Counted from the stretch's first letter, positions 11,090 to 37,719 are shown. The stretch is DNA of 40,000 nucleotides from Vibrio mytili (GCF_000830505.1 NZ_JXOK01000010.1:83794-123793); one strand, 5' to 3'. Translations and numbers: made by a program. Notes: a model not told the origin generated them from the letters alone.

Positions 11090-11181
11090 GGAATGAGATG
11101 GGGTCTGGTGGCCCTCTTGGTCTTCAAAACCAAAGTGAGCCGCACAGGCTTTGGTAGGTTCGATTCCTGCCTCTTCCGCCA
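11090..11181 (+). tRNA. selC: tRNA-Sec (anticodon UCA)
   Basis: 92 nt that aligns by eye with E. coli selC. It has a 6-bp D stem with a 4-nt loop (GGGGTC-TGGT-GGCCCT) and anticodon loop CTTCAAA with TCA at 11124-11126. It also has a long variable arm (11134-11153), T arm GTAGG-TTCGATT-CCTGC, discriminator G and encoded CCA. The acceptor 5' strand GGAATGAG has 8 nt but the 3' strand CTCTTCC has only 7 nt (see findings). Confidence 0.85.
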
Positions 11182-11248
11182 ATTTTGTCACTATATCAAT
11201 CGCCTTCGTAGTGACCTTGTTGCATTGATAAGATAACAAGGAATCATT

Positions 11249-12661
11249 TTGAACTCACAATCACCCCAGCCACCGCAGCGTTCAGAGGTGAGTGCTCCTC
11301 GCATCAATTACCGTCTTCCTCAAGTCGAACAACTACTACAACTCTCTATTCTTGCCCCTTTTATCGGTCTACTGAGCCGTCCTGTTGTCACCGATATTAT
11401 TCGAACTGAGCTTGAGAGCATTCGTCGTTCGGAAGATTTTAAGGAAAAAGGGACTCAGGACATTGATGTCAATCTACGCATTATAAAGCGTTGTGAGCGC
11501 GTGACATTGCAACGCCAGCATCGAGTCATTAATGCCACCGGCATTGTTCTACACACTAATTTGGGCCGCTCTCCGTTACACACCAACGTATGGGAAGCGG
11601 TCTCGGATGTGAATACTGGTTACACCAACTTGGAAATTACGCTGGAAAACGGCAAGCGTGGTGGTCGAAATGGGCTACTGCCTACTTTAGTAAGAAGTTG
11701 GCTTGGTGCAGAGAACGTACTATTAGTGAATAACAATGCCGCGTCGGTGTATTTGGTGCTACTGGAGTTAGCGAAAGGCAAAGAGGTGATTGTATCTAGA
11801 GGTGAGCAAGTTCAAATCGGTGGCGGCTTTCGTATCCCTGATATTCTGATGTTATCGGGCTGCAAACTGGTTGAAGTGGGAACGACGAACGTTACCACGG
11901 CTGATGACTACATTAACGCGATTACCGAAGATACGGCGTTGGTTTTGATGGTGCATCAATCGAACTTTTTTATCGGTGGATTTACAGAATCCCCCGACAT
12001 TCGCGAGGTGAAACGTCGCTTGCCAAGTCATGTTAGTTTGGTGATTGATCAGGGGTCAGGTATGTCGAACGAAAGCTTTGCGCCGGATGAGACGCAACTG
12101 GCGTCCTATTTAGACATGGGTGCGGATTTGGTCTGTTTTTCGGGGGACAAAATTCTGGGCGGTCCACAAGCAGGTCTGATCGCAGGCAGGGACGAACTCA
12201 TCCAACGTTTGGGTCGTAACCCGATGATGCGGGCATTTCGTTGTGGACGCATCATTTTGTCGCTGATAGAAGAGCTGTTGGTTCGCAAGCTCAATCAAGA
12301 AACCTCCGGACAGGGCATCGCAGAGCGTACGCTTGCCAACTTGTCGAATATACGTCAATGGTGTGAGGGGCTTGCGCAGCGTTGGCATCATTGGGTGACA
12401 TTTGTCGAATTGTCGACCCAAGTTGGCGGTGGAACCATACCAGCTCAAACGTACCCTGGATGCGGCTTAGTGCTCAACACGCCGCTTAAACCGCAAGCGC
12501 TGCTCGACCATTTGCGTCTTGGTTCGCCCGCTATTTTAGGTTATCTGCACAATAATCAAGTAGTGCTGAATCTCACCACGGTACTTGAGGAAGATCAAGC
12601 TGCGTTTGTCGACCGCTTGGATACCTTTTTTCACCAGTTAGATCGTGGTGACTTTTCATGA
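11249..12661 (+). CDS. selA: L-seryl-tRNA(Sec) selenium transferase (selenocysteine synthase)
   Basis: Collinear with E. coli SelA, sharing VLHTNLGR, VNNNAA, SRGEQVQIGGGFRIPD and the PLP-lysine motif FSGDKILGGPQAG. TTG start with an AAGGAA SD 5 nt upstream. ATGA overlap with selB. Confidence 0.9.
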   Translation: MNSQSPQPPQRSEVSAPRINYRLPQVEQLLQLSILAPFIGLLSRPVVTDIIRTELESIRRSEDFKEKGTQDIDVNLRIIKRCERVTLQRQHRVINATGIVLHTNLGRSPLHTNVWEAVSDVNTGYTNLEITLENGKRGGRNGLLPTLVRSWLGAENVLLVNNNAASVYLVLLELAKGKEVIVSRGEQVQIGGGFRIPDILMLSGCKLVEVGTTNVTTADDYINAITEDTALVLMVHQSNFFIGGFTESPDIREVKRRLPSHVSLVIDQGSGMSNESFAPDETQLASYLDMGADLVCFSGDKILGGPQAGLIAGRDELIQRLGRNPMMRAFRCGRIILSLIEELLVRKLNQETSGQGIAERTLANLSNIRQWCEGLAQRWHHWVTFVELSTQVGGGTIPAQTYPGCGLVLNTPLKPQALLDHLRLGSPAILGYLHNNQVVLNLTTVLEEDQAAFVDRLDTFFHQLDRGDFS

Positions 12662-14468
12662 GCGGCGTTAATACCTTACCACAGACGGTGATTGGCTTGG
12701 CGGGGCACGTCGATCACGGTAAAACCACATTAGTGAAAGCGCTGACTGGCATGATGACCGCTCGCCCGCATGAACAAGAACTGGGTATGACTCAGGATTT
12801 GGGCTTTGCACATTTCGAGGACGAACAAGGTCGCACCATCGGCATCATCGACGTGCCGGGGCATGAGCGTTATGTGCGCAACATGGTGGCCGGTGTTTGG
12901 CATATCAATATTCTGTTGTTGGTGATTTCCGCCACTGAAGGATGCATGCCAATGACCTTTGCTCACATGCGATTGGCGCGCGCGATGGGCGTTAAAGACA
13001 TCGTGGTGTGTATCAATAAAAGCGATCTCGTCAGTGATCAAGTGCTGGCGGAAGTTGAAGAGTCAGCATTAGAAAGCATCATGGACATTACCGGCATCGT
13101 GCCCGAAGTGGTGTGCGTCAGCGCGCTAACGGGACACAACGTCGATAAATTGCGCCAAACCTTGCTGGAGATGGTTGCGCGAGTTGAGTTGTCTGATGTG
13201 ATGCCGGGTGATGCGGCCACGCCGCTGCTGTATGTGGATCGCGTTTTTGTGGCCAATGGCGTCGGCACGATTGTGACCGGAACTCTGGCCCAAGGCACCG
13301 TAAGCATTGGCGATAAATTACTGAGCCCTAGTTGTGGCACGGTGGGCGCTATCCGTTCGATTCAGTGTTATCACCAACAAGTGAACGACGTCACGGCGAC
13401 TTGTCGAGTAGCGCTCAATATCAAAGGCTTAAGCCGAAAACAGGTGCAGCGAGGTGACTTGCTGTGCGCGCCTTCGGCTCCTGTGACGCTCACTGACTCA
13501 TGCATCGTACGGCTCAACGATCGCTATAGCGATGTGAGTCTATCCCGTGCAACTGAAGTGGAAGTAGCGGTGGGCACCTGGCATGGCCTTGCGCAGTGCA
13601 TTCCTTTGCCCAACACCCAGTTGGCGCGCTTGCTGTTTCGTGAGCCACGTCCGATGTTCTTTGGTCAGCGTTTGGCGATTATTCAAAGCAGCGGTCATGG
13701 ATTGCTGGCTCAAGCGGATGTGGTGTGGACATCGTTTATTGCGAAAGCGCGTAAACGTGCGATCTACCAAGCGTTGTCTACCTTGCCCGAGACGCTCACG
13801 GCGCATGCGCAACTGGATATGCTGCTGCAGCTGCAAGGCTACTATTCGGTTGAGTTATTGTGTGGTGAATCGGCGACGCAAGGCGTGGTCGAAGGCCAAT
13901 ATGTGTTTGATCCGCAATGGCTGGCTGAGGCACAAGCGCGCGTCATTCAGCTATTGTCTGAAGGTCGTGCGATGGGGCCGGGTGAACTGTCGAGTTCACT
14001 GCAAATCGAACCAGAAATCGTGCAGGTGCTGACTCAACAGCTAAAACAGCAAGAACGTATTTTTTACAGTTACGCTAAGTGGCAGTTAGGCAGCGGGCAA
14101 AGCGAAGATGAATTACCCGAAGTGGCGCAAACCATTTTGCGTCTTACGCGTGAAGCCGGACAAGCGGGTTTGGAGCTCAATAAAGTTTCGCTTGGTCATG
14201 ATAAAAAGTGGCTTCGGCAGCTCGCTCATCAGAAATACATTACTGCGATTGATGAGCAAATCTACTTCGATATGGGCGTGTATCGTGCGCTGGTTAACCA
14301 AGCTATTGGCGACAATCAACCTACGAACGAGTTACATTGCAAGAGATAAAACAGCGCGTGAATTTGAGTCGTAAATACCTCATCCCGTTTGTGAATCGAA
14401 TGGAAAAAGATGGTTGGTTCCGCCGAGATGATGAGGTTCGAATAATCCTAAAATCCGCCGAAGAATAA
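12658..14468 (+). pseudogene. selB: selenocysteine-specific elongation factor SelB, frame interrupted near the 3' end (or assembly indel)
   Basis: GTPase motifs GHVDHGKTTL, DVPGHE and NKSD are present. The main frame stops at 14347-14349. The neighbouring frame is open 14298-14468 and encodes TLQEIKQRVNLSRKYLIPFVNRMEKDGWFRRDDEVRIILKSAEE, the expected terminal winged helix. The span length is 2 mod 3, so one base is missing. Confidence 0.85.
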
Positions 14469-14511
14469 GCTAAATCGTATCATAAAATAACATTAACATG
14501 GACAGTAAAAC

Positions 14512-14544
14512 GCAGAGGTAACCCCTCTGCCGTTTTATTTTTTT
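14512..14544 (+). terminator. Rho-independent terminator after selB
   Basis: GCAGAGG-TAACC-CCTCTGC hairpin followed by CGTTTTATTTTTTT. Confidence 0.85.
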
Positions 14545-14557
14545 GGACGGAAAAATG

Positions 14558-14608: not shown

Positions 14609-14653
14609 AAATAATGCGTTTAAATAGAGAACAATATAAGACTTTGCTTTTAG

Positions 14654-14673: not shown

Positions 14674-14696
14674 GGTTTAAATTTGATTTTTTATCC

Positions 14697-14745: not shown

Positions 14746-15351
14746 ATGAAAAGCTTTGTGGTTGCCGACCCAACAAAATGCATTGGCTGTCAAACGTGCA
14801 TGGCAGCATGTTCAGATGTGCATAAGAAACAAGGGTTGCAAAGTCATCCTCGTTTAACCGTAGTCAAGCATAACGACGCGACTGCGCCGATTATGTGTCG
14901 ACATTGTGAAGACGCACCTTGTGCGACGGTTTGTCCGGTTAACGCGATCAAAAAAGAAGAGGATCGCATCCTCTTACAGGAAACATTGTGCATAGGTTGT
15001 ACCTTATGTGCTGTAGCGTGTCCGTTTGGCGCGATCGCGCTAGATGGCAGTCGCCCCGTTGCGATGTCAAATAGCTACGAAACCTTTATCCCTTCGACGC
15101 CGCGTTCTAGTAATCCTTGTACTTCAAATCCAAAAAACTTTGGCCATGATCTTTTGGCTTGGGAACCGGGCGTGAAAAGCATCGCCGTGAAGTGTGACTT
15201 GTGCGGATTCCGCGATAAAGGCCCTGCGTGTATAGAAGTGTGTCCAACAGGCGCGATCGTGCTGGTGGACGAAGCGAGTGCTTTGCAAGCGCGTGATGCG
15301 AAACGTGAAGCGGCCTCTAGTGTCTCCGCTGTTGTCAAAATGGAGTCGTAA
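14746..15351 (+). CDS. hycB: formate hydrogenlyase 4Fe-4S ferredoxin subunit HycB
   Basis: Collinear with E. coli HycB (MNRFVIAD..CIGC..). Four Cys clusters are present: CIGCQTCMAAC, CRHCEDAPC, CIGCTLCAVAC and CDLCGF..ACIEVC. Confidence 0.9.
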   Translation: MKSFVVADPTKCIGCQTCMAACSDVHKKQGLQSHPRLTVVKHNDATAPIMCRHCEDAPCATVCPVNAIKKEEDRILLQETLCIGCTLCAVACPFGAIALDGSRPVAMSNSYETFIPSTPRSSNPCTSNPKNFGHDLLAWEPGVKSIAVKCDLCGFRDKGPACIEVCPTGAIVLVDEASALQARDAKREAASSVSAVVKMES

Positions 15352-15353
15352 CC

Positions 15354-17285
15354 ATGAATCCTCTTGTACTTACCGCGTTATCGCTGTGTGGTTATATCGC
15401 TGCGGCGTTTGTGGCCATGTTCTCTCGTAATCATGAGCGGGAAAACCTGCGTTTATCCAGTGTGATCAGTATGTTTGCGGGCATATTGAGTCTGATTTCT
15501 GCTGTGGCTGTGATCGTCCATCCGATGGGTCATACGCTCGAATTTAGCTTGTTTTACGATGTATTTGTATTGGATAAATTATCTGCGTTGTTGCTGCTGG
15601 TGATTGCGATTGTTTCCATCGCCGCAGCGGGATACGCGATGAATTATCTTGATGAGTACCTAGGCAAAGGTGCTGGTTCCATTACAGTATTATTTAACCT
15701 ATTTGCTGGTGCGATGACTGCGTTAGTTGCAGCCAATCAAGCGATCGCGTTCTTAATTATTGTTGAAATCATCTCAATCAGCTCGTTTGCTTTGGTGATT
15801 CAAGGAAACACTGCTGCACACCGTAAAGCAGGTTTACATTACTTGGTCATGGACCATGTGGCGAACGTGTTTATCGTCGCTACCTTTGCAATTTTGGCTT
15901 ACCACGCTAACAGCCTGATGTTTAGCGATTGGATTGCCACACCACCTCAAGGTGAATTAGCGTCGTTGACCTTTGTATTGGCGTTAATTGGTTTTGGCAT
16001 TAAATCCGCTGGCATTTTCTTCCACGAATGGCTGCCTAAAGCGTACCCATTGGCGCCGTCACATTGTGCAACGCTGATGTCATGCGTAATGGTGAAACTG
16101 GGCGTTTACGGTTTGTTGAAAGTGGCCATTGTTTTCCTTGGTGCCACTCAATGGTGGTGGGGTTTGGTCGTGCTGATCTTTGGTGCGCTGTCTTCCGTTT
16201 TGGGCGTGATGTTTGCGCTGGCTGAACACAACATTAAACAACTGTTGGCGTACCATTCCGTTGAAAATATTGGGATCATCCTGATGGGCGTGGGCGTGAG
16301 TATGATGGGCATTGCGACCGATCACATGGTGATAGCAGTGCTGGGCTTGCTGGGCGCGCTGTATCACTTGCTCAACCACGCAGTGTTCAAAGGCTTGTTA
16401 TGTTTGGGGTCGGGATCGTTAGTTTACCGCCTGCACACCAAAGACATGGAAAAAATGGGCGGTTTGGCGAAACGCATGCCCAAAACCGCGCTGACTTTTT
16501 TAATTGGTAGCATGGCGATTTCTGCGCTGCCACCGCTAAACGGCTTTGTCAGTGAATGGTTTATTTACCAATCTTTATTTTCCATCAGCCAAACAGGTAG
16601 TGTGGCGCATCTAATCTTTGGTCCGTTTGGTGCAGTGATGCTGGCATTGACCGGCGCACTGGCGTGCATGTGTTTTGTCAAAGTGTACGGCATCTGTTTC
16701 GGTGGCGCGCCGAAATCTGAAGTTGCGGAAAGTGCTACCGAAGTGGGCAACGCGATGGTGAATGCGACCATTGGCCTATCTGTGCTGTGTGTGGTGTTGG
16801 GCATTGCTTCACCATGGATTGCACCGTACATCGCTGATATTGCCAGCGCAACACTACAAACGGGCGAAGTCACTGTAGCGCAAGGTATGTCGTTGTTCCC
16901 TGCCAGCAACATGCAGGCGCTCCTATCAACGCCGCTGATTTTGTGCGCACTGACACTGTTGCTGTTGGTGCCAACGGCGATTCTGGCTTTCCACAAACGT
17001 GAACGCTTAGCTAACCGACAACAAGGTGACCCTTGGGCGTGTGGTTACCAATACGAACAAAAAATGACGGTCTCTGCGGGTGGCATCACTCAGCCGATGC
17101 GTCACATGTTCCGCTATATCTATCAATCTCGACCTAACCGCACTTTGACGGAGCGTTTCTTACGCTCACAACCGACTGTGGGGGAAGAAATCTCGCGTGG
17201 GGTGTATCGCAGAACCATGGTGTTCTGGATTGGCCTTGTTGTACTTTGCACGATCTTTTTCCCGTTAATTTCTGGAGTTATTTAA
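15354..17285 (+). CDS. hycC: hydrogenase-3 membrane subunit HycC (NuoL-like antiporter subunit)
   Basis: 643-aa polytopic protein collinear with E. coli HycC (e.g. LAYHSVENIGIILMG, LNHAVFKGLL, PPLNGFVSEW). GGAG SD. Confidence 0.9.
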   Translation: MNPLVLTALSLCGYIAAAFVAMFSRNHERENLRLSSVISMFAGILSLISAVAVIVHPMGHTLEFSLFYDVFVLDKLSALLLLVIAIVSIAAAGYAMNYLDEYLGKGAGSITVLFNLFAGAMTALVAANQAIAFLIIVEIISISSFALVIQGNTAAHRKAGLHYLVMDHVANVFIVATFAILAYHANSLMFSDWIATPPQGELASLTFVLALIGFGIKSAGIFFHEWLPKAYPLAPSHCATLMSCVMVKLGVYGLLKVAIVFLGATQWWWGLVVLIFGALSSVLGVMFALAEHNIKQLLAYHSVENIGIILMGVGVSMMGIATDHMVIAVLGLLGALYHLLNHAVFKGLLCLGSGSLVYRLHTKDMEKMGGLAKRMPKTALTFLIGSMAISALPPLNGFVSEWFIYQSLFSISQTGSVAHLIFGPFGAVMLALTGALACMCFVKVYGICFGGAPKSEVAESATEVGNAMVNATIGLSVLCVVLGIASPWIAPYIADIASATLQTGEVTVAQGMSLFPASNMQALLSTPLILCALTLLLLVPTAILAFHKRERLANRQQGDPWACGYQYEQKMTVSAGGITQPMRHMFRYIYQSRPNRTLTERFLRSQPTVGEEISRGVYRRTMVFWIGLVVLCTIFFPLISGVI

Positions 17286-18239
17286 ATGTATTCACTAGAA
17301 ATTCCCAGCTTGAACTGGGTGATCTTTGCAGTGTTCCAAGCGTTGCTGATGTTATGTTTGGCACCGCTGGCGACTGGTTTTTCTCGTGTTATTCGAGCCA
17401 GAATTCACTCTCGCCGTGGTCCTGGCATTCTGCAGGACTATCGCGATATCGGTAAGTTGTTACGCCGCCAATCGGTGGCGCCGGCCAACGCCAGCTTTGT
17501 GTTTTGGATGATGCCATGGGTGCTACTAACTAGCTTGTTACTGATCTGTATGTCGCTGCCAACCTTCACCAGCATGTCGCCATTTCCTATGTCGGGCGAT
17601 CTGATCACCGACATCTACCTGTTGGCGATTGGCCGTTTTTTCTTCTCATTGTCGGGCATTGACTCTAACAGCATGTTTGCCGGTATGGGCAGTAGCCGAG
17701 AGTTAACGCTGGGCATTTTGATTGAACCGATCTTTATCCTCGCGATTTTCATAATGGCACTGGGCGCAGGATCGACCGACCTGGGTGTGATCAGCCATGT
17801 CGTGCAAAGCGGCGAGTGGGTGCGTCCTGTTACTTACTTGTTTGCAGGCATTGCGTGCGCGTTTGCGGTGTTTGTGGAAATGGGCAAACTGCCGTTTGAC
17901 AGCGCTGAAGCTGAACAAGAATTGCAAGAGGGTCCTGCAACGGAATATTCCGGTGCGGGTCTGGCGATGGTAAAGCTGGGCTTGGGCTTGAAACAACTGG
18001 TCGTGGCGCAGCTGTTTTTGGCCATTTTCATTCCTTGGGGTCGCGCGGCGAATCTAGGTGGTGCTGAGCTATGGAGCGCTGCGTTGCTCCTGTTGGTGAA
18101 ACTGTTCGTCGTGTTCTTGTTAGCTGGCATCGTCGAAAACTGCATGGCGCGAATTCGCTTTCTCAACATGCATCGAACTGTGTTCCCCGTAATTGGCGGC
18201 ACCGCTCTTGCGTTGGTCTTTTTTATTTTTGGTTGGTAA
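17286..18239 (+). CDS. hycD: hydrogenase-3 membrane subunit HycD (NuoH-like)
   Basis: 317-aa membrane protein in the conserved operon position. It has a NuoH-like EAEQELQEGPATEYSG loop and a GGAG SD. Confidence 0.9.
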   Translation: MYSLEIPSLNWVIFAVFQALLMLCLAPLATGFSRVIRARIHSRRGPGILQDYRDIGKLLRRQSVAPANASFVFWMMPWVLLTSLLLICMSLPTFTSMSPFPMSGDLITDIYLLAIGRFFFSLSGIDSNSMFAGMGSSRELTLGILIEPIFILAIFIMALGAGSTDLGVISHVVQSGEWVRPVTYLFAGIACAFAVFVEMGKLPFDSAEAEQELQEGPATEYSGAGLAMVKLGLGLKQLVVAQLFLAIFIPWGRAANLGGAELWSAALLLLVKLFVVFLLAGIVENCMARIRFLNMHRTVFPVIGGTALALVFFIFGW

Positions 18240-18242
18240 CAG

Positions 18243-19988
18243 ATGATGATAATGAATACACAAAACGATGCCTTGGTTAAAACAGGCAAACACTATCTGG
18301 CGGGGTTGGTGCAAAAGTTCCCGAATGCCATCCTTGAGGAAGAGTGGCAGACCAACACCCAAGTGACCATTACAGTGAAAATGACCTCGTTGGTCGAAGT
18401 GATGCAATGGCTTTACTACGATCAAGGCGGCTGGTTGACCGTGTCGTTTGGTAACGACGAACGAAGTATTAATGGACACTTCGCAGTGTACCACGCGCTG
18501 TCGATGGAAGGCGTTGAGAAATGCTGGATTACTGTCAAAGTGCTGGTGGATGCCAACAGCCAAGAGTTTATTTCGATCACGCCAACCATTCCCGCAGCGG
18601 TATGGGGCGAACGTGAAATTCGCGATATGTATGGTCTTCGCCCGGTAGGCTTGCCTGATGAACGTCGTTTGATCCTCCCCGATGACTGGCCAGAAAATTT
18701 GCACCCACTGCGCAAAGATGCGATGGATTACCGTCAGCGTCCACAACCAACGACAGACACTGAAACTTATCCGTTCATCAATGAGCGCGGAGACGATTCA
18801 AACCGCATCGTACCAGTTGGCCCAATGCACATTACTTCTGATGAGCCTGGACACTTCCGTCTTTTCGTGGATGGTGAAGATATCGTGGATGCCGATTACC
18901 GCATGTTCTACGTTCACCGTGGTATGGAAAAACTGGCGGAAACGCGCATGGGTTATCACGAAGTGGGCTTCTTGGCAGACCGAGTGTGCGGCATTTGTGG
19001 TTTCACCCACAGCGTCGGGTACGCCAATACCGTTGAGAACTCACTGAATGTACAAGTGCCACTACGCGCGAAAATGATTCGTACCATTTTGCTGGAAGTG
19101 GAACGTCTGCACAGTCACCTATTGAACATTGGTTTGTCGAGCCACTTTGTGGGCTTTGACTCGGGCTTCATGCAATTTTTCCGAGTGCGCGAAAAAACCA
19201 TGGAGCTGGCTGAGCTATTGACTGGTGCACGTAAAACTTACGGCATGAACCTAATCGGTGGCGTGCGTCGTGACTTTTTGAAAACGCAACGCGAAAAAGG
19301 CATCGCGATGGTACGTGAAGTACGCCATTCATTCCAAGAGTTGGTGGAAGTGCTGTTATCGACACCGAACATTGATAGCCGTTTGGTAGGCGTGGGCGTG
19401 TTGGCAAAAGACATTGCGCGCGATTTCAGCCCAGTTGGTCCGCTGATCCGCGGTAGCGGTTTTGAGCGTGATGTACGGGTTGTGCATGGTCAATCGCTAG
19501 AAGCGTACGCGAATGTGCCAATCGAACTGCAACACATGGGTAACGGCGACGTCCAATCCCGTGTGATCGTGCGTATTCGAGAAGTGTTAGATTCTCTTAA
19601 CATCATTGAATATGGCTTGGATAGCCTGCCAGCTGGCGCAATCCTGACGGAAGATTTCGAATACACACCGAACAAATTTGCGCTGGGCTTTACCGAAGCG
19701 CCACGTGGCGAAAATGTTCATTGGAGTATGACTGGCGATAACCAAAAACTATTTCGCTGGCGCTGCCGCGCGGCCACTTACGCCAACTGGCCAACGCTGC
19801 GTTACATGTTGCGTGGTAATACCGTAGCCGATGCACCGCTGATCATTGGTAGTTTGGACCCTTGTTACTCTTGTACTGACCGTGTGACCATCGTGGATAC
19901 CAAGAAAAAACGCAGCCAAACTGTACCCTACAAAGCCATCGAACAATACAGCGTGAGCCGCAAAAATTCGCCGCTGAAAGGACTGTGA
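18243..19988 (+). CDS. hycE: [NiFe] hydrogenase-3 large subunit HycE (NuoC-NuoD fusion)
   Basis: Near-collinear with E. coli HycE. It has the N-terminal Ni ligand motif [11 protein letters not shown] and the C-terminal DPCYSCTDR, followed by a tail of about 34 residues (the HycI cleavage substrate). Confidence 0.95.
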
Positions 19989-19995
19989 GGCTGTC

Positions 19996-20573
19996 ATGAT
20001 TAAACTACTCAAAACCATTCTCAAAACCGGTGACGTTACGGCGAAATATCCCTTTGCGCCATTTGAAGTTGCCGAGGATTTTCGCGGTAAACCGGAGCTG
20101 AATGCGAGCCAATGTATCTCGTGCGGCGCGTGTACGCGCGCCTGTCCGGCAAATGCTTGATCATGGAAAACGATGAGCAGAACAGCACCCGCTGTTGGGA
20201 GTTGTCGCTGGCGCGATGCATTTACTGCGGCCGCTGTGAAGAGGTGTGTCCAACCCACGCGATCGAACTCTCCAAAGCGTTCGAATTGGCCGTGACCAAA
20301 AAAGAAGATTTGTACGAAAGGGCAGAATTCGAGTTGGCCAATTGCACGTGCTGCAGTCGTCCGTTTGTGGCGAAGAAACTGCTCAACTACGTAGTGGATT
20401 CACTGGAACAAGCAGGCTTGCGCGGTGAAGCGTTAGCAATGCGTCGCCGTCAATTAGAAACCTGTCCGGCGTGCCGCCGAGAAGACAACATGTTGGACGG
20501 CACCAATCTGGCGACACACCGCTACATGACCAGTCCTAATGATTTAATCCTGATGACCCCGGAGGATATGTGA
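19996..20573 (+). pseudogene. hycF: formate hydrogenlyase 4Fe-4S subunit HycF, frame interrupted (or assembly indel)
   Basis: ATG 19996 opens a 54-codon frame, [54 protein letters not shown], that is not in the track and stops at TGA 20158-20160. HycF homology continues in the adjacent frame ([20 protein letters not shown]..) to 20573. The span length is 2 mod 3. Confidence 0.85.
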
Positions 20574-21388
20574 AAGGTATCAAGCAACTCTCTGGTGAAA
20601 AACACACCACCGCCGTGCCAGCCGAAGTTTCTCCGCAGCATGAGAAACTGAAACAAACGCTGATCAACCAAATTAAACGTTCTGCTTACGTTTACCGCGT
20701 GGACTGCGGCGGTTGCAACGCTTGCGAAATCGAAATCTTCGCCGCGACCACACCGGTATACGATACTGAACGCTTTGGTATCAAAGTAGTGGCGTCGCCA
20801 CGTCATGCCGACATTCTGCTGTTTACTGGTGCTGTGACGCGTGCCATGCGCGCTCCTGCGCTACGTGCGTATGAAGCGGCGCCGGATCCAAAAATCGTGG
20901 TCTCTTACGGCGCTTGCGGTTGTGACGGCGGTATTTTCCACGACCTGTACTGCGTGTGGGGCGGGACAGACAAAATCGTACCTGTCGATGTTTATATTCC
21001 CGGTTGTCCTCCAACGCCTGCGGCGACGCTTTACGGGTTTGCGGTCGCACTTGGTCTTCTTGAGCAAAAAATGCATGCCAAACAACATGATGTGCAATCC
21101 ACTCCTGCCACATTGCGTCATACTGGCATACCGATGGATATTCGTGTGTTAGTGGAACGTGAAACGCGTCTGTTGGCTGGTTACCGTCAAGGTAAACGCA
21201 TCGCCAACGAACTGCTGGATGTACTGGCAAACAGTACGAGCGACAATGTCGACAGCAATGTTAGCCATTACTTGGGTGAACATGACGACCCACGCCTGAG
21301 CGACATTGTCAATAGCGTGATGCGTTCGGTGATGCTGCAGATCACCGGAAACGATCAACCGAAAGGGGTTTGCCATGGCTGTCAGTGA
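20570..21388 (+). CDS. hycG: hydrogenase-3 small subunit HycG (NuoB-like)
   Basis: [35 protein letters not shown] and VYIPGCPP are almost identical to E. coli HycG. GTG start overlaps the hycF stop, with GGAGGA upstream. Confidence 0.9.
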
Positions 21389-27350: not shown

Positions 27351-27404
27351 GCCGCGTTTATTGCGGTTGGCTCAATCGACAGACAACAAATAAAGGTATT
27401 AACG

Positions 27405-28250: not shown

Positions 28251-28366
28251 CCATGTTGAGTTATTTAGTCGTAAGGCTTATGGCTGCTGGGTTCCCAGCA
28301 TATCGAGAGTTATGAGTCTTCTTTTTAGTTTTTATTTTCTCGTTCATTTTTTAAGAGCTTTTCGTT

Positions 28367-28947
28367 ATGAGTAAAAAAAATACAGCAATCGTCAGTCTAT
28401 GCCTTCTTTTCTCACCAATGGTGTTTGCCCACCCGGGTCACCTTGGTAGTCATGGGCTTGAAAGCGGCTTTATGCATCCGTTGACGGGCTTGGATCACCT
28501 GACTGTCATGATTGGTGTGGGTCTGTTAGCGGCGTTGTTTGGGGGTAAAAACCGCTGGACAATGCCCCTAAGTTTTGTCGCCTTTATGGTGATTGGTGGC
28601 GTGATGGGTATTTCTAGCTTGTGGTTCCAGGTGTCGAAACCTTCATCGCGCTGAGTGTGATAATGATGGGCGTCATGCTGTTTCGCGGTACGAACATGCC
28701 ACAAAAAATGGCGACGACGCTGATCATGGCGTTTGCGGTGTTTCACGGTATGGCGCACGGTGCAGAAATGCCAATCAACAGTCAAGCGATCAGCTACTTC
28801 TCTGGCTTTATCGTTGTCACCGCCAGTCTGCACATTGTAGGTATCGTGTTAGGCGAAATGGTAATGCGTTTTGCAGCCAGCAAACGTTTGAATCAACTGG
28901 CAGGTGCGGTGATTGCTCTGCTGGGTGGCGCATTCCTGTTTTCATAA
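28367..28947 (+). pseudogene. hupE: HupE/UreJ-family nickel transporter, frame interrupted (or assembly indel)
   Basis: A signal peptide is followed by AHPGH..GFMHPLTGLDH (28367-28654). The adjacent frame, open from 28618, continues VVPGVETFIALSV...FHGMAHGAEMP to 28947. The span length is 2 mod 3 and the repaired product would be 193 aa. Confidence 0.8.
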
Positions 28948-28959
28948 TGGATAGAAGCG

Positions 28960-31247
28960 ATGATGCGTTGTCTGATTGAAATTAAAGGACAGGTACAAGG
29001 GGTTGGTTTTCGGCCCTTTGTGTACGGTCTGGCCATTGAGCACCAGTTGAAAGGCTGGGTGATCAATGATGCTCGGGGCGTACGGATTGACGTCCAAGGT
29101 GAACAGCGCCAATTTGACGCATTTTATCGTGAACTATTGATTAAGACACCGCCCTTAGCGCGTGTTGATAATATAGAATTACGTCCATTGGCATTGGCAG
29201 ATTTTACAGAATTCCGCATTTTACCGAGCCGTGGGGACAATGAAATTAGCGTCAGTGTTCCGCCCGACCAAGCGATTTGTATGGACTGTCGTCGGGAACT
29301 GTTTGATCCTAACTCGCGCTTTTATCACTACCCATTTATCAACTGCACTCATTGTGGTCCGCGTTACACCATCATCAAAGCCTTGCCATATGACCGTCAT
29401 CAAACCTCGATGAAGGGTTTTAAGCTTTGCCCAGATTGCGCGCGCGCGTACCAAAATCCAATGGATCGCCGTTATCATGCACAACCGGTGAGTTGCGCGC
29501 ACTGCGGCCCATCGGTTGCTCTGTTTAGCCCGCAACAAACACGTATCGCCAAAGAACACCAAGCGATTGAACGTGCAGCCGAGCAACTTATCGCAGGTGG
29601 TATCATTGCGCTTAAAGGCCTTGGCGGATTTCATTTGGTGTGTGATGCCACGTCTTACCAAGCGGTTGCGAGGTTGCGTGAGTTAAAACATCGCGCCAGA
29701 AAGCCGTTGGCCGTAATGGTGAGCGATGTGACGCAAGCCAAGCATTACGTTCAGGGTGAAGCGTTGGAGTGGCAAACGCTGAAATCGCAAGCCAGTCCTA
29801 TAGTATTGATGCGCAAGGCTGAGCGTGCTGATGAGGCAGAACGTCTGTCGCTGACAACGTCGCCCCAAATGTCGATTGCCTGGGTGTGATGCTGGCCTAC
29901 ACGCCACTACACCTATTGTTGATCGAGGCGTTGCAACTGCGTGGCTGTTTTGCGCCGTTGGTGATGACCAGCGCTAATGTGTCGGGGTTACCATTAGCGA
30001 CCGAAGCGCAGCAGGTGTTTGCGATGTTTGGGGCATCCCTCGACAGCGTGCTCGATCACAATCGCCCAATCATTCATGCCTGTGACGACAGCTTAGTGCA
30101 GTTGGCCGCTGGCAGCATGCGTGTGCTGCGTATGGCGCGTGGTTATGGACCTCTGAGTTTTCCGTTAGAGAATCACGCACCGGCCACGCTAGCAGTGGGC
30201 GCACAACAAAAATCGACCGTTGCATTTGCGGTGCGCAATCAATGGTTTTTGTCGCCTTACCTGGGGGATATCAACGATCTCGATACGCAGCAACGTTTTA
30301 TCGATGCGACTGGTTATTTTCCTGATCTTTACCAAGCATCGACCGAGCGTTGGGTGTCGGACGCTCATCCGGGTTATTTTTCAACCCAGTGGGTTAATGA
30401 GCAAACCGATTCAGCGCTACAAGTACAGCACCATTACGCGCATATTTTAGCCGTGATGGCTGAATCACAACTCAATGGTCCTGTTCTGGGGGTAAGTTTT
30501 GACGGCACTGGCGCGGGCGATGACGGGACGGTATGGGGCGGTGAAGTGATGATCGCAGACCGACTCAGTTATGAACGCATCGCGCACCTTCGACCTTTTC
30601 GTTTGATTGGGGGCGAACAAGCGATCCGTGAACCTGAACGCGTGCTGTACGCCTTATTGCTTGAAATCATGACGCCAGAACAGATCCAGCAGCTAAATCT
30701 GCCAGCGTTTGCGTCGTGGTCTGCGTCGCATTTCCAAAACCTGTTTCACTTGTGGCGCAACGCGGAACGTTCTCCGCTGTGTAGCTCGGTTGGTCGTCTG
30801 TTTGATGCGTGGGCATGCCTATTGGGCTTGGTGATGACACCGGATTACGAAGGCGAAAGCGGGCTGCAAATGGAGAATGCCGCGCGTCAAGCTGGCGAGC
30901 ACCAGTTTGCACTGGCATTGCCTTGGTGTGATCAGCAACTCGATTGGGCACCGGCGTTACAGCAATGTTTGGCGCAACACGAATTATCGTCCGAACGTTG
31001 GGCGTGTATATGTAGCGACGCCTTTATCAGCGCGTTGGCACAGGCAGTGGTCGATATTGCACAGCAACACGCTAACTTACCGTTGGTGTTGAGTGGCGGC
31101 GTGTTTCAAAATCGCTGCTTGCTGGATGCCATCGACGCGTTGTTCCCCGATTCGGCGTGTCCGTTTATCACCGGAAGTCACATTCCGGTCAATGATTCCG
31201 GAATCGCCGCGGGTCAGCTCTGGCATCAATTGGCTTATGACATTTAG
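28960..31247 (+). pseudogene. hypF: carbamoyltransferase HypF, frame interrupted (or assembly indel)
   Basis: The N-terminal part has the acylphosphatase motif VQGVGFRPFV, two pairs of CxxC zinc fingers, and the YrdC-like GLGGFHLVCDA. Its frame stops at 29887-29889. The adjacent frame is open from 29835 and reads SVADNVAPNVDCLGVMLAYTPLHLLL (E. coli: [24 protein letters not shown]), continuing to 31247. The span length is 2 mod 3. Confidence 0.85.
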
Positions 31248-31316
31248 TCGAACCTAAAGAATAACGCTACGGCGACGAATGGCGTCGTGGCTTCATTATC
31301 AATAAGTGAGAACACC

Positions 31317-31574
31317 ATGTGTTTATGTATTCCTTCCCGCGTGTTGTCTGTCGATGAAGACGGGATGACTGCCAAAGTGGACACCTTGGGTGTATGCAAA
31401 GAGATCAGCACACATCTCATCAGTGACCCAGTTGCCGTCGGCGACCATCTGCTTGTTCACGTGGGGTTCGCCATCAGCAAAATTAACCAGCAGGAAGCGG
31501 CAACCAACCTAGCGACGTATGAAGCGTTGTTGGCTGAGATGGAACAAGAAGACGTTGCGGTGTTGCTCTCATGA
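31317..31574 (+). CDS. hypC: hydrogenase maturation chaperone HypC
   Basis: The start is set at ATG 31317 so that the product begins MCLCIPSRV, giving the essential N-terminal Cys2. 85 aa. ATGA overlap with hypD. Confidence 0.85.
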   Translation: MCLCIPSRVLSVDEDGMTAKVDTLGVCKEISTHLISDPVAVGDHLLVHVGFAISKINQQEAATNLATYEALLAEMEQEDVAVLLS

Positions 31575-32722
31575 ATGCTGCGTCCAATCTGTATCAAACC
31601 TATCGTCGCCCGGATGTGGTGGTAGCCTTGGCGGATAAAATTCGCCAACACGCAGAGCAGCTTAACCAGCCGTTATACATCATGGAAGTGTGCGGTGGGC
31701 ATACTCACACCATCATGAAATATGGCTTGAAACAGTTGTTGCCGGAATCGCTCAGCTTCGTGCATGGCCCGGGGTGTCCGGTGTGTGTGATGCCAAAAGA
31801 GCGTATCGACCATGCGATTGCATTGGCACAATTGCCGGATGTAATGCTGGTGTGTTTGGGCGACATGATTCGCGTGCCGGGTTCGCGACAGTCTCTAGCG
31901 CAATGCCGAGCCGAAGGTGGACATGTGGTGCCGATTTATGATCCGATGGACGTGTTGAAGATCGCCAGAGAGAACCCAACCAAGCAGGTGGTCTATTTTG
32001 CAATTGGATTTGAAACCACCACACCCATGACGGCCGTGTTGGTCGATTTGGCCGAGCGCCAGCAGATCAACAATCTCTACTTTCACATTAATCATGTGTT
32101 GGTGCCGCCAGCGATGAATGCGGTGATGGCCGACGAACGCACGCCGGTGAACGCTTTTATTGGCCCGTCACACGTGAGTGCGGTGACCGGGTCACATATT
32201 TATCAACCGATTGTCGAACAACACCAAATTCCGGTGGTTGTGGCGGGCTTTGAGCCGGTCGATGTTCTGGAATCGGTATTGATGCTGGTTGAGCAAGCAG
32301 TCTCGAATCAGGCGGTGCTGGAAACTCAATATTCTCGCGTCGTGACATCGGAGGGGAACACGGTGGCTCAAGCGTTTGTCGACAAAGTATTGGCGGTGCG
32401 CGACACATTTACGTGGCGCGGGCTGGGCAATATTCCAAGTTCGGCATTGCAACTGCGTGATACGTACGCACATCGCGATGCGGAATTACGTTTTGCGGCG
32501 CATCTGCCACACCATCATCAAGACGATCATAAAGCGTGTCGCTGCGGCGACATCTTACGCGGCTTAGCTACACCGCCAGACTGCAAAGTGTTTGGCCGCG
32601 CGTGCAAGCCAACGCGCCCAATGGGCAGCTGCATGGTGAGTTCCGAAGGGGCTTGCAATGCGTATTATCGCTACGGCGCCATTGAATCGGTGTCGTTGAC
32701 CGGGGGGAACGAAAATGAGTGA
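31571..32722 (+). CDS. hypD: hydrogenase maturation protein HypD
   Basis: MEVCGGHTH, GPGCPVCV and the C-terminal Cys-rich SSEGACNAYYRY motifs are present. 383 aa. Confidence 0.9.
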   Translation: MNAASNLYQTYRRPDVVVALADKIRQHAEQLNQPLYIMEVCGGHTHTIMKYGLKQLLPESLSFVHGPGCPVCVMPKERIDHAIALAQLPDVMLVCLGDMIRVPGSRQSLAQCRAEGGHVVPIYDPMDVLKIARENPTKQVVYFAIGFETTTPMTAVLVDLAERQQINNLYFHINHVLVPPAMNAVMADERTPVNAFIGPSHVSAVTGSHIYQPIVEQHQIPVVVAGFEPVDVLESVLMLVEQAVSNQAVLETQYSRVVTSEGNTVAQAFVDKVLAVRDTFTWRGLGNIPSSALQLRDTYAHRDAELRFAAHLPHHHQDDHKACRCGDILRGLATPPDCKVFGRACKPTRPMGSCMVSSEGACNAYYRYGAIESVSLTGGNENE

Positions 32723-33716
32723 GATGACTCACGTGCAAATCAGTCATGGTGGCGGCGGTCAAGAGATGGGCCAGTTTATTCGCCAGTTATTTTTCTCGCG
32801 CTTTGGCAACGAAATTCTCAAACGCGACGAAGACGCTGCGAGCTTGTCGATCAGCGGCCCGATTGCGATGACCACCGACAGTTTCACCGTTTCACCGCTA
32901 TTTTTTCCAGGCGGCAATATCGGCTCGCTGGCGATTGCGGGCACCTGTAACGATCTGGCGATGGCTGCGGCGAAACCGACATATCTGAGTTGCGGTTTCA
33001 TGATTGAAGAGGGGCTGGCGCTGAGTGAGCTGACCGATATTGTCGACACCATGGCCAGGGAGCTCAGTCGCATCGACGCGCAAATTGTGTGTGGCGATAC
33101 CAAAGTGGTGCCTAAAGGCAGTGTCGATAAAGTTTTTATCAACACAACCGGTATTGGCGCCATCCTGCGTGACGGTGTGTCGGCGCACAACCTGCAACCG
33201 GGCGATTGCATTTTAGTGTCACGCGATATTGGTTGTCACGGTGCGTGTGTGCTGGCGCAGCGTGAATCGATGGCGCTAGAGACGCAAATCGAGAGCGATT
33301 GTGATCTGTTGTGGCCAGCGGTTAACGCGCTTTTGCACGCCGACATTGAGATTCACGCCATGCGCGATGCCACGCGCGGCGGTTTGTCTGCGGTGCTCAA
33401 CGAATGGTGTCAAACCAGCCAAGTACAGTTGGTGATTGATGAGCAAAGTGTGCCCGTGACCGACGCTGTGCGCGGGTTGTGTGAACTGTTTGGGTTCGAA
33501 CCTTACGATTTGGCCAATGAAGGCACTTTTGTGCTGGCCGTGCCCGCCAAAGATTGCGACACCGCACTGGCCGCGCTGCGCCAACATCATACCAACGCCG
33601 CGTGTATTGGCACCGTGCAAGCCGGAACGCCAGCGCGTCCCATTTTATGCAACCCTTGGGGAAGTCGTCGTTACCTCGACTTTCCGGCAGGCGAGTTGCT
33701 GCCACGAATTTGTTGA
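32715..33716 (+). CDS. hypE: carbamoyl dehydratase HypE
   Basis: PurM-like fold signature HGGGG and the invariant C-terminal PRIC. 333 aa. Confidence 0.9.
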   Translation: MSEMTHVQISHGGGGQEMGQFIRQLFFSRFGNEILKRDEDAASLSISGPIAMTTDSFTVSPLFFPGGNIGSLAIAGTCNDLAMAAAKPTYLSCGFMIEEGLALSELTDIVDTMARELSRIDAQIVCGDTKVVPKGSVDKVFINTTGIGAILRDGVSAHNLQPGDCILVSRDIGCHGACVLAQRESMALETQIESDCDLLWPAVNALLHADIEIHAMRDATRGGLSAVLNEWCQTSQVQLVIDEQSVPVTDAVRGLCELFGFEPYDLANEGTFVLAVPAKDCDTALAALRQHHTNAACIGTVQAGTPARPILCNPWGSRRYLDFPAGELLPRIC

Positions 33717-33724
33717 GAAGCGCC

Positions 33725-34066
33725 ATGCATGAACTTTCCATTAGCTTGAAAACCATCGATTTGGTTGTCGAGCAAGCTCAAAAGCACCACTACCGCAAGG
33801 TCACCAAAATTACGCTCAGCGTTGGGGTGTTGTCGTGCATTGAGCCAGAAGCGTTGCGAACTGGGTTAGAAATGGCCAGCCGCGAAACGATCGCCCAGGA
33901 CGCCGAAGTGGTGATAGAAACCCTGCCAGCGATTGCCGTGTGCCAAGGGTGTCGTCACCAGTTTGCAATTCAGAATTATCAAGACAGTTGTCCGCAGTGC
34001 CACAGTTATCAATTGACTGTGCAGCAAGGCGAAGAACTTCAGGTCAAACACATCGAGGTTGAATAA
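33725..34066 (+). CDS. hypA: nickel insertion protein HypA
   Basis: The start is set at ATG 33725 (MHELSI..., the N-terminal MHE Ni site). The zinc site is CQGC...CPQC. 113 aa. The track ORF from 33554 is an upstream extension that overlaps hypE. Confidence 0.85.
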
Positions 34067-34067
34067 T

Positions 34068-35204
34068 ATGTGTACTGTTTGTGGCTGCGGTGATAGCCAA
34101 ATTGAGCACGGTCATCAGCATGATCATCCCCATTCTCATGGACATTCACATGAGCACGGGCATTCTCATGACCATGCGCACGATCACGGTGAGTATCACA
34201 CTCACACTAGCGAACAACCGTTGGTGATTCATCATCATTACTCCCACCAAGGCGATGTTCATCATCACGTTCATTATCATGGCTTTACTCCGGCATCAGC
34301 GCCGCAGTACGCCCAGCTTGACCATGCACATCATGAACATAGTCACCATGAACATAGTCACTCTGACCATGCGCACCATGAACACAGTCATGCGGAACAG
34401 AGCCACCACGCCCATCATGCTCACTCAGACGATCACGACCACGCAGAGCATCACGCGCAGACGCATGCAAATGGTGATATGCATTTTGGTCGCGGCGAAG
34501 CGCAGGTGCATGTGGCGGGCGTATCTCAACGTCAATTGCTCACACTGGAACAAGACATTTTGGGCAAAAACAACGAAGTGGCAGAACACAACCGCGCGCA
34601 TTTCATTGCCGCTGGTCAGTTGGTGCTCAACCTTGTCTCCAGCCCGGGTTCAGGCAAAACCACCTTGTTGGTTGAAACCTTAAATCGTCTGAAAGATCGC
34701 TTGCCATGTGCGGTGATTGAAGGGGATCAACAAACCAGCAACGACGCCGACCGTATTCGCGCTACGCAAGTGCCAGCCTTGCAAGTCAACACTGGTAAAG
34801 GCTGCCATTTGGATGCCGATATGATTCACCACGCGTATCACCAATTAGCGTTTGATGAGTCCGGTGTGCTTTTCATCGAAAACGTGGGCAACTTGGTGTG
34901 TCCTGCCAGCTTTGATCTCGGCGAGCGTTGCAAAGTCGCGATTTTATCGGTCACCGAAGGAGAGGACAAACCTCTGAAATACCCCAACATGTTTGCTGAA
35001 TCTGAACTGATGATCATCAACAAAACGGATTTACTGCCGTACGTGAATTTCGACGTGGTGAACTGCATTCACAATGCCAAGAAAGTGAACCCAGCGATTC
35101 AGGTGATTCAGTTATCAGCGACCACTGGTGAAGGATTCGACGCTTGGCTCAATTGGCTGACCGAGCAGCGCGCGGTGGTGAACTGTTCTATTTCGGGCCT
35201 ATAA
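34068..35204 (+). CDS. hypB: nickel-binding GTPase HypB with a very long His-rich insert
   Basis: The start is set at ATG 34068 (MCTVCGCG, the CxxCGC motif). GTPase motifs are [19 protein letters not shown] and NKTDL. Residues 14-139 contain about 49 His by hand count. Confidence 0.9.
34332..34361 (+). repeat. perfect tandem 15-bp repeat inside the hypB His-rich region
   Basis: CATGAACATAGTCAC occurs twice (34332-34346 and 34347-34361), and a degenerate third copy CATGAACACAGTCAT lies at 34377-34391. Each copy encodes HEHSH units. Confidence 0.85.
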
Positions 35205-35286
35205 CGTCATCGCCATGTGGTTCTGAATGTTGGGCGACTCCGCCCATCATGTGTATTTTAAGCAACGTTCGTTAAAAGGTTCGATC

Positions 35287-36546
35287 ATGCGTTTAAGTCA
35301 AATGTCTCTTCTTCTCTGCGGCTTCAGCCTTAGCTCTATCGCTGCCGCGGCTACCTTCTCCGATGTCTTGGAGAGCCAACAAGCGCAACAGGATAAGGTG
35401 CAAATTGTCGATTGTCGCGACAGTAACTTCTACAACGGCTGGCCAGAAATGGGCCAAACGGCTGGCGGTCATATTCCGGGGGCGGTGAACTTTGATTCGC
35501 GCTGGGTCGAAATGATGTCAACCGATGAACTAAAACAGATCATCGAGAATAAGTCGCTGGTTAAAGATCAGCCTACTTTTCTTTACTGCGCCGTTGAAAG
35601 TGCAGCTCAATTGAAAAAAACATTGTTGAATCATGGTTTTCAATCCGTCGAGATCATTGAACAGCCGCTGGAACAATACCAAGGCGAGTTGGTAGCATTG
35701 CCCCGTTACCAAAACTTGGTGCCAGCTTGGTGGTTGGATGACGTGCTCAAAGGTGAGACCGTACAACATGCCCCAAGTAACGATTACAAAGTGCTGGAAG
35801 TGGCATGGGGTCCGGCAACCAAGTACCTGTGGGCGCACATTCCGGGCGCTCAGTATGTCAATACCAACGACATCGAATCGAAACCTTGGTGGAACCGCGT
35901 GTCTGACCAACAGCTGGAAATTCTGGTTAACAATCTCGGTATCAAATACGACACCACTGTGATTTTGTACGGCCGCGATAACACGGCGGCAGCGCGACTG
36001 GCCAACATTCTGATGTATGTGGGGGTGCAAGATGTGCGTCTGCTCAACGGCGGCTGGCAATCTTGGGAAGATGGTGGTTACAAAACAGCAATGACGTCAC
36101 CAGACGTCTCGGCGACCACATCTTTTGGTAAGACCATTCCAGCCAATAAAAATTACATTATTGACCTGCCAGAAGCGAAAGCATTGCTGACATTACCACA
36201 AGACAAGCAATCGCTGGTGAGTATTCGTTCCTTGGCCGAATTTAACGGGGAAACTAGCGGCTACGATTACATTCAGTCCAAAGGTCATATTCCGGGCGCA
36301 AAATGGGGTCACGCGGGCAGCGATGCGTACCATCTGGAAGATTTTCGTAACCCAGACCAAACCATGCGCAGCGCGAATGAAATCACTCAGTTCTGGCATG
36401 AATCCAACATCGAGCCACAGCAACAAGTATCGTTTTTCTGCGGTACCGGTTGGCGTGCTTCTGAAGTCTTTTTTGATGCTTACGTGATGGGCTGGGAAAA
36501 TATCAGCGTTTATGACGGCGGTTGGTATCAATGGGCAGGGAAATAA
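35287..36546 (+). CDS. periplasmic multi-domain rhodanese (thiosulfate sulfurtransferase, YnjE-like)
   Basis: The start is set at ATG 35287, giving the signal peptide MRLSQMSLLLCGFSLSSIAAAA. Rhodanese modules are repeated, and the last carries the active-site loop FFCGTGWRAS. The size is like E. coli YnjE. Confidence 0.75.
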   Translation: MRLSQMSLLLCGFSLSSIAAAATFSDVLESQQAQQDKVQIVDCRDSNFYNGWPEMGQTAGGHIPGAVNFDSRWVEMMSTDELKQIIENKSLVKDQPTFLYCAVESAAQLKKTLLNHGFQSVEIIEQPLEQYQGELVALPRYQNLVPAWWLDDVLKGETVQHAPSNDYKVLEVAWGPATKYLWAHIPGAQYVNTNDIESKPWWNRVSDQQLEILVNNLGIKYDTTVILYGRDNTAAARLANILMYVGVQDVRLLNGGWQSWEDGGYKTAMTSPDVSATTSFGKTIPANKNYIIDLPEAKALLTLPQDKQSLVSIRSLAEFNGETSGYDYIQSKGHIPGAKWGHAGSDAYHLEDFRNPDQTMRSANEITQFWHESNIEPQQQVSFFCGTGWRASEVFFDAYVMGWENISVYDGGWYQWAGK

Positions 36547-36611
36547 ACTCTAACTTTCGCGGTGAATTACATCTATCGTTGCAGCATGAGCGGTAGACAT
36601 GAAAGAGAATA

Positions 36612-36654
36612 AAGAGGCGACGTGATGGACTTAAATTTCAGCACGTTGCCTCTT
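36612..36654. terminator. bidirectional terminator hairpin between the rhodanese gene and selD
   Basis: AAGAGGCGACGTG pairs with CACGTTGCCTCTT, a 13-bp stem with one G-T pair and a 17-nt loop. An A-rich run lies to the left and TGTTTATTT to the right. Confidence 0.65.
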
Positions 36655-36674
36655 TGTTTATTTGGGCGAGGGAG

Positions 36675-37719
36675 TTAGAGGAAGTGAATGCGGCACACCT
36701 CACCGTTGTGTGCTGAGAATTGACCAACTTTAAACAGAGGCAGGTTACTCTCGGCCAGCAGTGTTTCCAAGTGTTCAACGTGTTGTGGATCAACTGCAAT
36801 CATCAGGCCACCACTGGTTTGTGGGTCGCATACAATGGCTTTTTGTTGTGCGGTCATTTTTGGCAAGCTGTCACCGTAACTGGCGAAGTTGCGGTGGGTG
36901 CCACCCGGTACGCAACCTTGTTGTAGATACGTATCCACTTTGGGAAGCAATGGCAATTCTTCTGTATGAATGGTAGCGTTTAGGTTAGAGCCCCGACACA
37001 TTTCAAGCAGGTGGCCGGCGAGACCAAACCCTGTCACGTCAGTCATGGCATGCACACCGTCAAGGCGCGCGATCTGTTCACCAATCTTGTTTAGTTGGCA
37101 CATGGCGTTTACCGCGATGTCGGTGTCGCCTTCGGCAATTTTTTTTCTGTTTCTGCGCGGTGGTCAGAATGCCAATCCCCAGCGGTTTGGTGAGGTAAAT
37201 GACGTCGCCTTCACGCGCGTGATCGTTACGCTTAATGTGGTCTAGCGCCACTTGACCGGTCACCGCCAAGCCAAAAATGGGTTCAGGTGAGTCGATGCTA
37301 TGACCGCCCGCCAAACAGATGCCGGCATCCGCACATGCTTTACGGCCCCCATCAACCACTTGTTGCGCTACGTCGGCCGACAATTTGTTGATTGGCCAAC
37401 CAAGAATCGCAATTGCCATAATGGGAGTGCCGCCCATGGCGTAAATGTCACTAATGGCGTTCGTCGCAGCAATACGGCCGAAGGTAAATGGGTCGTCCAC
37501 GATAGGCATAAAGAAGTCCGTGGTGCTGATAATACCCACTTTGTCATCGAGTTTATAGACTGCCGCGTCGTCGCAGCTTTGGTTGCCAACTAACAGGTTA
37601 GGGTCAACAAAATTGGGTTGTTGAGAGGCAAGAATGGTGGCAAGCACTTCGGGGGATATTTTGCAGCCGCATCCCGCGCCATGACTGTATTCAGTCAAGC
37701 GAATCGAATCTTCAATCAT
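36675..37719 (-). pseudogene. selD: selenophosphate synthetase SelD (Cys form), frame interrupted in an A8 run (or assembly indel)
   Basis: The N-terminal part [26 protein letters not shown]... is collinear with E. coli SelD up to [18 protein letters not shown]. The frame is then lost in the run CAG-AAAAAAAA-TTG (plus-strand T8 at 37139-37146). With 7 A the frame continues [21 protein letters not shown]...DVTGFGL to 36675. The span length is 1 mod 3, and the repaired product would be 347 aa, as in E. coli. Confidence 0.85.

Follow-up and report, generated by a model that had tools for sequence, protein, structure and literature searches.

The closest described counterpart of the locus treated here is the formate hydrogenlyase (FHL) system of Escherichia coli, FHL-1 (hycA-I, hypA-F, fhlA, fdhF and hydN), taken together with the selABCD genes of the selenocysteine (Sec) machinery; in that species fdhF and the sel genes are dispersed over the genome. 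A matching gene set, judged by Pfam and product name, is found in the window analysed in this work, by which we mean the whole stretch of 40,000 nucleotides (nt) of Vibrio mytili DNA (NZ_JXOK01000010.1:83794-123793). HycB-I, HypA-F, FhlA, HydN, FdhD, FdhF, SelA, SelB, SelD and tRNA-Sec could all be matched with E. coli. Unlike in E. coli, everything in V. mytili is gathered in one island of ~27 kb, which additionally contains hupE and a rhodanese gene, and no hycA homologue was noted.

Islands of this sort are also present in V. furnissii, V. fujianensis and many species of Photobacterium, with synteny that is common from tRNA-Sec to at least hypF and with HycE protein identities to V. mytili, a member of the Harveyi clade, of 99%, 97% and 86%, respectively. 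At the DNA level the identity with V. furnissii is 87.7% from window position 10975 onward. Lux et al. 2014 (PMC4139957) described as horizontally acquired a V. furnissii region with hydrogenase-4/formate dehydrogenase genes, which may or may not be the block considered here.

Taken at face value, seven genes of the V. mytili island are broken by single-base frameshifts, and two known phenomena offer themselves for comparison. Drafts with homopolymer indel errors (454/Ion Torrent, unpolished long reads) are alike in that the changes are single-base, consist of indels only, fall on homopolymer sites and occur in one assembly, and in that the downstream frames stay open while annotation treats the genes as pseudogenes or fragments; they are unlike in that the errors in the window are mostly in 2-3 nt runs of G or C and are unevenly spread over the ~56 kb examined. 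Genuine pseudogenisation in host-restricted or niche-shifted bacteria is alike in that a single pathway has several interrupted genes, but it is shared by a lineage, accumulates, and mixes nonsense mutations, deletions, insertion sequence (IS) elements and substitutions, none of which were seen in the window.

Eight one-base differences between two assemblies

A sequence-only reading of the window had listed eight single-base lesions, all within the FHL/Sec block, seven of them in genes and one in tRNA-Sec, and had left two explanations side by side, namely assembly or basecalling indels and a very recent inactivation of one regulon. According to our analysis the eight differences are very probably sequencing or assembly artefacts of an older V. 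mytili draft, and not regulon decay. Homopolymer-length miscalls during sequencing or assembly of the 2015 draft would have produced them, and the true locus of the organism would be an intact Hyc-type formate hydrogenlyase island with its Hyp maturation genes and the selenocysteine machinery.

The window DNA apparently comes from the earlier public draft for CAIM 528, the V. mytili type strain (JXOK01, 2015; contig of 239,104 bp), and the assignment of JXOK01 to CAIM 528 is taken from PMC12753305. We identify it as the older public assembly of the strain because the RefSeq protein WP_245228359.1 (306 aa), annotated on a V. mytili contig of 239,104 bp, is letter-identical to the truncated FhlA open reading frame (ORF) of the window, and even the out-of-frame tail of this ORF, DWWEGSLICCAM, is present in it. 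On a contig of the same length a second V. mytili fragment is annotated, WP_245228365.1, which is the 95-aa C-terminal part of HycF.

A newer assembly of the same strain, GCA_965136275.1, was reached by exact-protein look-ups, and three overlapping loci of its contig CBCRVP010000003.1 span the entire window. Alignment of this contig with window positions 1-40000 gives 0 mismatches and 8 one-base gaps; undoing the eight indels in the window restores an exact copy of the newer record together with seven full-length ORFs (as called, SelB 603, HycF 192, HycI 151, FhlA 685, HupE 193, HypF 762 and SelD 347 aa). The variant alleles are thus private to one assembly, while the other assembly of the strain, otherwise base-identical, has the reference alleles, and this strongly supports an origin in assembly or basecalling. 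The differences are as follows.

14319..14321, + strand: frameshift in selB; CC at 14320-21 where the reference has CCC, codon 554 of 603, placed by alignment
14511..14512, + strand: 1-nt deletion in the selB terminator; G at 14512 where the reference has GG, non-coding, 5' arm of an intrinsic terminator
20155..20156, + strand: frameshift in hycF; C at 20156 where the reference has CC, codon 54 of 192
21894..21896, + strand: frameshift in hycI; CC at 21895-96 where the reference has CCC, codon 30 of 151
26176..26177, + strand: frameshift in fhlA; A at 26177 where the reference has AA, codon 295 of 685
28617..28618, + strand: frameshift in hupE; C at 28618 where the reference has CC, codon 84 of 193
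29834..29836, + strand: frameshift in hypF; GG at 29835-36 where the reference has GGG, codon 292 of 762
37139..37146, - strand: frameshift in selD; T8 on the + strand where the reference has T7, a 1-nt insertion at about codon 194 of 347

All seven genic frameshifts proposed from the sequence (selB, hycF, hycI, fhlA, hupE, hypF, selD) are therefore borne out by the alignment to GCA_965136275.1, and so is their direction, six deficits of one nucleotide and one surplus in selD. The positions given for them were close, save for selB, which had been put at ~14332, 12 nt away from the real site at 14320-21. The count of eight holds only by replacement: tRNA-Sec carries no lesion, and the terminator indel at 14511/12 had been overlooked. 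It was also claimed that the flanks are free of lesions within the window, and indeed we see 0 differences from the newer assembly at 1-14318 and 37147-40000.

The protein lost by truncation ranges over the seven genes from 8 to 81%, the smallest share being that of SelB, from which the final 50 aa are gone. At the second selB site the reference forms a terminator stem, AAAACGGCAGAGG/CCTCTGCCGTTTT, in which the arms are a perfect 13-bp complement followed by a T-tract, and the window allele breaks it. Regarding the spectrum, seven changes shorten 2-3-nt runs, of which six are G or C runs, and one lengthens T7 to T8, so that the length of a homopolymer is altered at all eight sites, with no substitutions, as one finds with artefacts of this type. 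The chance that seven of seven random deletions would fall in runs of two or more is ~0.004, given that ~45% of bases lie in such runs. Among the runs of six or more in the window only one out of 55 was struck, which argues against slippage of the mismatch-repair type and for a problem of chemistry or consensus. By eye, no shared methylation-type motif was seen at the eight sites beyond the short run itself.

The sequence-only reading had proposed an alignment with the orthologous loci of relatives, and this comparison returned the intact allele in every genome covering each site, including V. mytili genomes or metagenome contigs (up to five, at 99.3-99.7% identity); wherever V. furnissii and V. 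fujianensis align, their alleles are intact as well. At the selB site CCC is present in 6/6 other genomes spanning the position, and at the hycF site CC is found in V. furnissii and V. fujianensis as well as in the twin assembly. Compared with the window, natural V. mytili genomes show 35-112 substitutions per locus and, besides the lesions of the window, 1-4 indel events, in total 473 substitutions against 17 indel events (~28:1), to be set against 0:8 for the window and its twin. Such a spectrum cannot be yielded by ordinary divergence, by a mutator background or by neutral decay after a first knock-out. The natural indels are intergenic or in-frame, with the single exception of a 1-nt deletion in JATABJ01.

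This exception (V. mytili contig JATABJ010000025.1, window position 9609) lies in a gene for a 681-aa hybrid kinase/response regulator, which is uncalled there, and may be genuine or, once more, an error of assembly.

In Logan read-based assemblies the intact proteins are present and the fragments are absent. The fhlA lesion allele had 0 matches in metagenome contigs. A selB pattern covering either allele had 0 matches in genome contigs, a collection that probably does not contain the V. mytili source record, and a HycE scan of genome contigs returned no V. mytili locus. In the gene-position index no exact match was obtained with the truncated SelB, HypF and FhlA ORFs or with KIN11951.

Degree of confinement to the pathway, and competing explanations

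Accession numbers give a further view of the older draft. In the KIN series of 2015, which we take to be JXOK01 proteins in line with the 239,104-bp contig, the unaffected genes are numbered SelA KIN11848, HycB KIN11849, HycC KIN11850 and HycG KIN11853, which leaves no slot for SelB and, between HycC and HycG, too few slots for HycD, HycE and HycF. The intact forms of 7/7 affected proteins are without a KIN accession: those of SelB, HycI, FhlA, HupE, HypF and SelD have 2025 accessions only (CAM..., WP_415679281-85, WP_415679301), and intact HycF is WP_238812768.1, common to identical proteins of other genomes.

The state of the draft beyond the window was judged in the same way, by looking up identical-protein accessions for ten flank genes of the newer assembly. 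Eight out of ten retain V. mytili accessions from before 2025 (KIN11834-38, KIN11863, WP_128814610, WP_052481486). The other two are a 1218-aa hybrid sensor kinase (CAM and WP_415679287 only), which starts at about window position 38073 and runs past the right end (locus L095 of the newer assembly, 12784-16440, the first 1.9 kb being window 38073-40000), and a LysR regulator to the right of the window (L095 19756-20658; CAM and WP_415679288 only). Both WP numbers belong to the series of new numbers in which the lesion genes are found. As far as accession numbering can tell, the older draft would then lack an intact copy of at least one unrelated gene just right of the window, and probably of both.

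The claimed clustering in the FHL/Sec block should be read in this light. All eight in-window indels do fall inside it, and the effect is only marginal: the probability of 8/8 indels within the 26.6-kb block is 0.039, and 0.079 by a range test. Since 72% of the G/C runs are located in the GC-richer block, weighting by such runs brings the value for the six G/C events to ~0.13; a binomial p calculated by hand, with the two lesions inferred outside the window included, is ~0.03-0.07. Inside the block there are lesion-free stretches of 5.6 and 7.3 kb, and selC, selA and most of selB are in the lesion-free zone. The lesion-rich zone seems to reach from ~14.3 kb to at least 45 kb and to cross the boundary of the pathway.

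We infer that it is the older draft which is in error, and that its errors are not limited to this pathway. Several points weigh against our explanation. The correct assembly was chosen by reasoning and not by observation of reads, and a literature search for the sequencing platform or a paper of JXOK01 or GCA_965136275.1 gave nothing useful. Most of the sites are 2-3-nt runs and 54/55 long runs are untouched, which is atypical of nanopore errors; short-run errors are usual for flow-based chemistries at low coverage. The two lesions outside the window come from accession numbering only. Finally, there are 0 lesions in ~24 kb leftward (14.3 kb of it compared directly, and another ~6 kb of coding sequence judged from accessions) as against 8-10 in ~31 kb rightward, with P(0) ~0.01 when calculated by hand at the pooled rate; this unevenness could come from local coverage or composition.

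The explanation that survives best after the one we prefer, still very unlikely in our estimation, is a real and very recent inactivation, in which the culture behind the older draft would carry the frameshifts and both FHL and Sec decoding would be dead in that stock or lineage. It draws on the position of all eight in-window indels between selB and selD (p ~0.04) and on the fact that seven of them disrupt one functional module, at a cost of 8-81% of the protein each. The evidence given above runs in the opposite direction: no other V. mytili genome or contig over the sites shares a lesion, the genes are intact in the other assembly of this strain, and 40 kb hold 0 substitutions where natural divergence brings ~28 per indel. 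In addition, one indel is intergenic and non-coding, the mixed spectrum of decay is missing (nonsense mutations, deletions and IS elements are all absent), two unrelated genes just outside the window seem to be hit in the same assembly, slippage of the mismatch-repair type would prefer the 55 long runs of which one was struck, and once fhlA or selB is knocked out there would be no selection for six more hits.

A variant of this, which we hold to be very unlikely, is localised indel hypermutation, with the older-draft culture truly carrying at least eight slippage-type 1-nt indels in ~30 kb and no point mutations. If true, one laboratory stock of the type strain would in this way have had its formate hydrogenlyase and its decoding of selenocysteine silenced.

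It is highly improbable that the window is the true sequence and the newer assembly, GCA_965136275.1, was wrongly over-corrected, for example by homology-guided polishing. Polishers that repair frameshifts do exist; against this, the intact alleles occur in independent V. mytili genomes, in two metagenome assemblies, in V. furnissii and in V. fujianensis, the Logan read-based contigs encode intact proteins, and the perfect 13-bp terminator stem at the non-coding site is found only in the intact version.

Functional changes of frame, that is programmed ribosomal frameshifting or phase variation switching the regulon, can practically be dismissed: the long T/A run of selD (T8) is a tract of the type used in phase variation, but the other seven sites are 1-3-nt runs without a slippery heptamer, and the orthologues in all relatives are single-frame, so the shifted arrangement is not conserved.

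We also considered that single bases of the record had been corrupted, deliberately or at random; this is disfavoured, all eight events being run-length changes (p ~0.004) and the product of the fhlA frameshift existing as RefSeq WP_245228359.1.

The tRNA-Sec gene and the content of the island

The remaining claimed lesion concerned tRNA-Sec, the first feature of the island. Gene identities in the following list were taken from precomputed Pfam matches to the genes called in the corresponding public record and from source names.

11090..11181, + strand: tRNA-Sec (selC), anticodon UCA, encoded discriminator G and CCA, found by ARAGORN
11249-12661, + strand: selA, ORF
12658-14468, + strand: selB, ORF with the frame restored
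14746..22260, + strand: hycBCDEFGHI, hydrogenase-3-type FHL core, Pfam and ORFs
22501-23046, + strand: hydN-like ferredoxin gene, ORF
23074-25218, + strand: fdhF, ORF
within 25294..37719, + strand: fhlA, fdhD, hupE, hypF, hypC, hypD, hypE, hypA, hypB and the rhodanese gene, ORFs and Pfam
36675-37719, - strand: selD, ORF and called gene

The asymmetry that was noticed in the tRNA-Sec acceptor is present, with the 5' strand GGAAUGAG (8 nt) facing the 3' strand CUCUUCC (7 nt) to give seven pairs and a bulged U5, and it was misjudged as a lesion. The gene scores 60.1 bits against the Rfam RF01852 gathering score of 47, has the UCA anticodon, a long variable arm and a 6-bp D-stem, and the pairs of the D-stem and of the variable arm appear in the consensus fold; instead of the canonical 8-bp acceptor and 5-bp T stem (13 bp) there are 12 stacked pairs and a bulge. 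The same gene sequence, without any change, is present in the twin assembly, in V. furnissii, in V. fujianensis and in four further V. mytili genomes; in six Photobacterium species both acceptor strands are identical, and Aeromonas has the same 3' acceptor strand with a different 8-nt 5' strand. Because the arrangement does not vary across Vibrio and Photobacterium, and its 3' strand is shared with Aeromonas, the asymmetry, judged from these sequence comparisons, is a conserved feature of the lineage and not damage.

With regard to the predicted gene content, the FHL/Sec island is of an ordinary, known kind. The Hyc-type character is given by PF00329 together with PF00374 and PF00346 (a [NiFe] large subunit with a fused 30-kDa-type domain), PF01058 (small subunit), PF00361 and PF00146 (two membrane subunits), Fer4 (ferredoxin subunits), PF07450 and PF01750 (HycH and HycI), by PF00158 on the 685-aa sigma-54 activator FhlA, and by a Sec formate dehydrogenase H with an in-frame UGA. 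The latter (TGA at 23491-23493, codon 140) stands between the two halves of the fdhF ORF, which the public record calls as 714 aa, and is the expected selenocysteine codon and not a lesion. SelD itself has Cys, and not Sec, in its GAGCGCK motif.

Upstream of hycB, in the region 14555-14715, repeated TGTCG/CGACA motifs can be seen by eye at 14563-14610, as well as a putative sigma-54-type -24/-12 element, TGGCATATTTTATGC (TGGCA-N7-TGC), at ~14698-14712; these candidate motifs fit FhlA-dependent transcription. Between hypB and selD, at 35287-36546, a 419-aa protein with a rhodanese domain is encoded, which could be a sulfur/selenium-transfer partner for SelD. The His-rich N-terminal region of HypB (window 34318-34331) shows a natural in-frame length polymorphism of 9 nt, the protein being 378 aa long in the window but 375 aa in contigs of ERZ650157 and ERR2094169.

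The G+C content is ~50% in the FHL/Sec block and 42-44% in the flanks, and the similarity to V. furnissii begins abruptly at ~10975, just upstream of tRNA-Sec, which suggests that the block of ~10975-37800 behaves like a horizontally acquired island. Protein clusters at 90% identity also include proteins of V. parahaemolyticus, as well as entries from a 175-kb contig that bear the label '(plasmid) [Vibrio alginolyticus]', and PLSDB contained no plasmid match to the island above ~75% identity.

Consequences for the V. mytili genome

At face value the pattern in this window would suggest a fresh loss of gas production and of selenoprotein synthesis in a Vibrio lineage; concerning gas production in V. 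mytili, our literature search found nothing. The locus illustrates that errors of a draft assembly can imitate pathway-specific pseudogenisation, and pseudogene counts from the older V. mytili draft are inflated. For users of this draft, apparently a species-representative genome, SelB, HycF, HycI, FhlA, HupE, HypF and SelD should not be treated as pseudogenes, and the same caution probably applies to the neighbouring hybrid kinase and LysR regulator.

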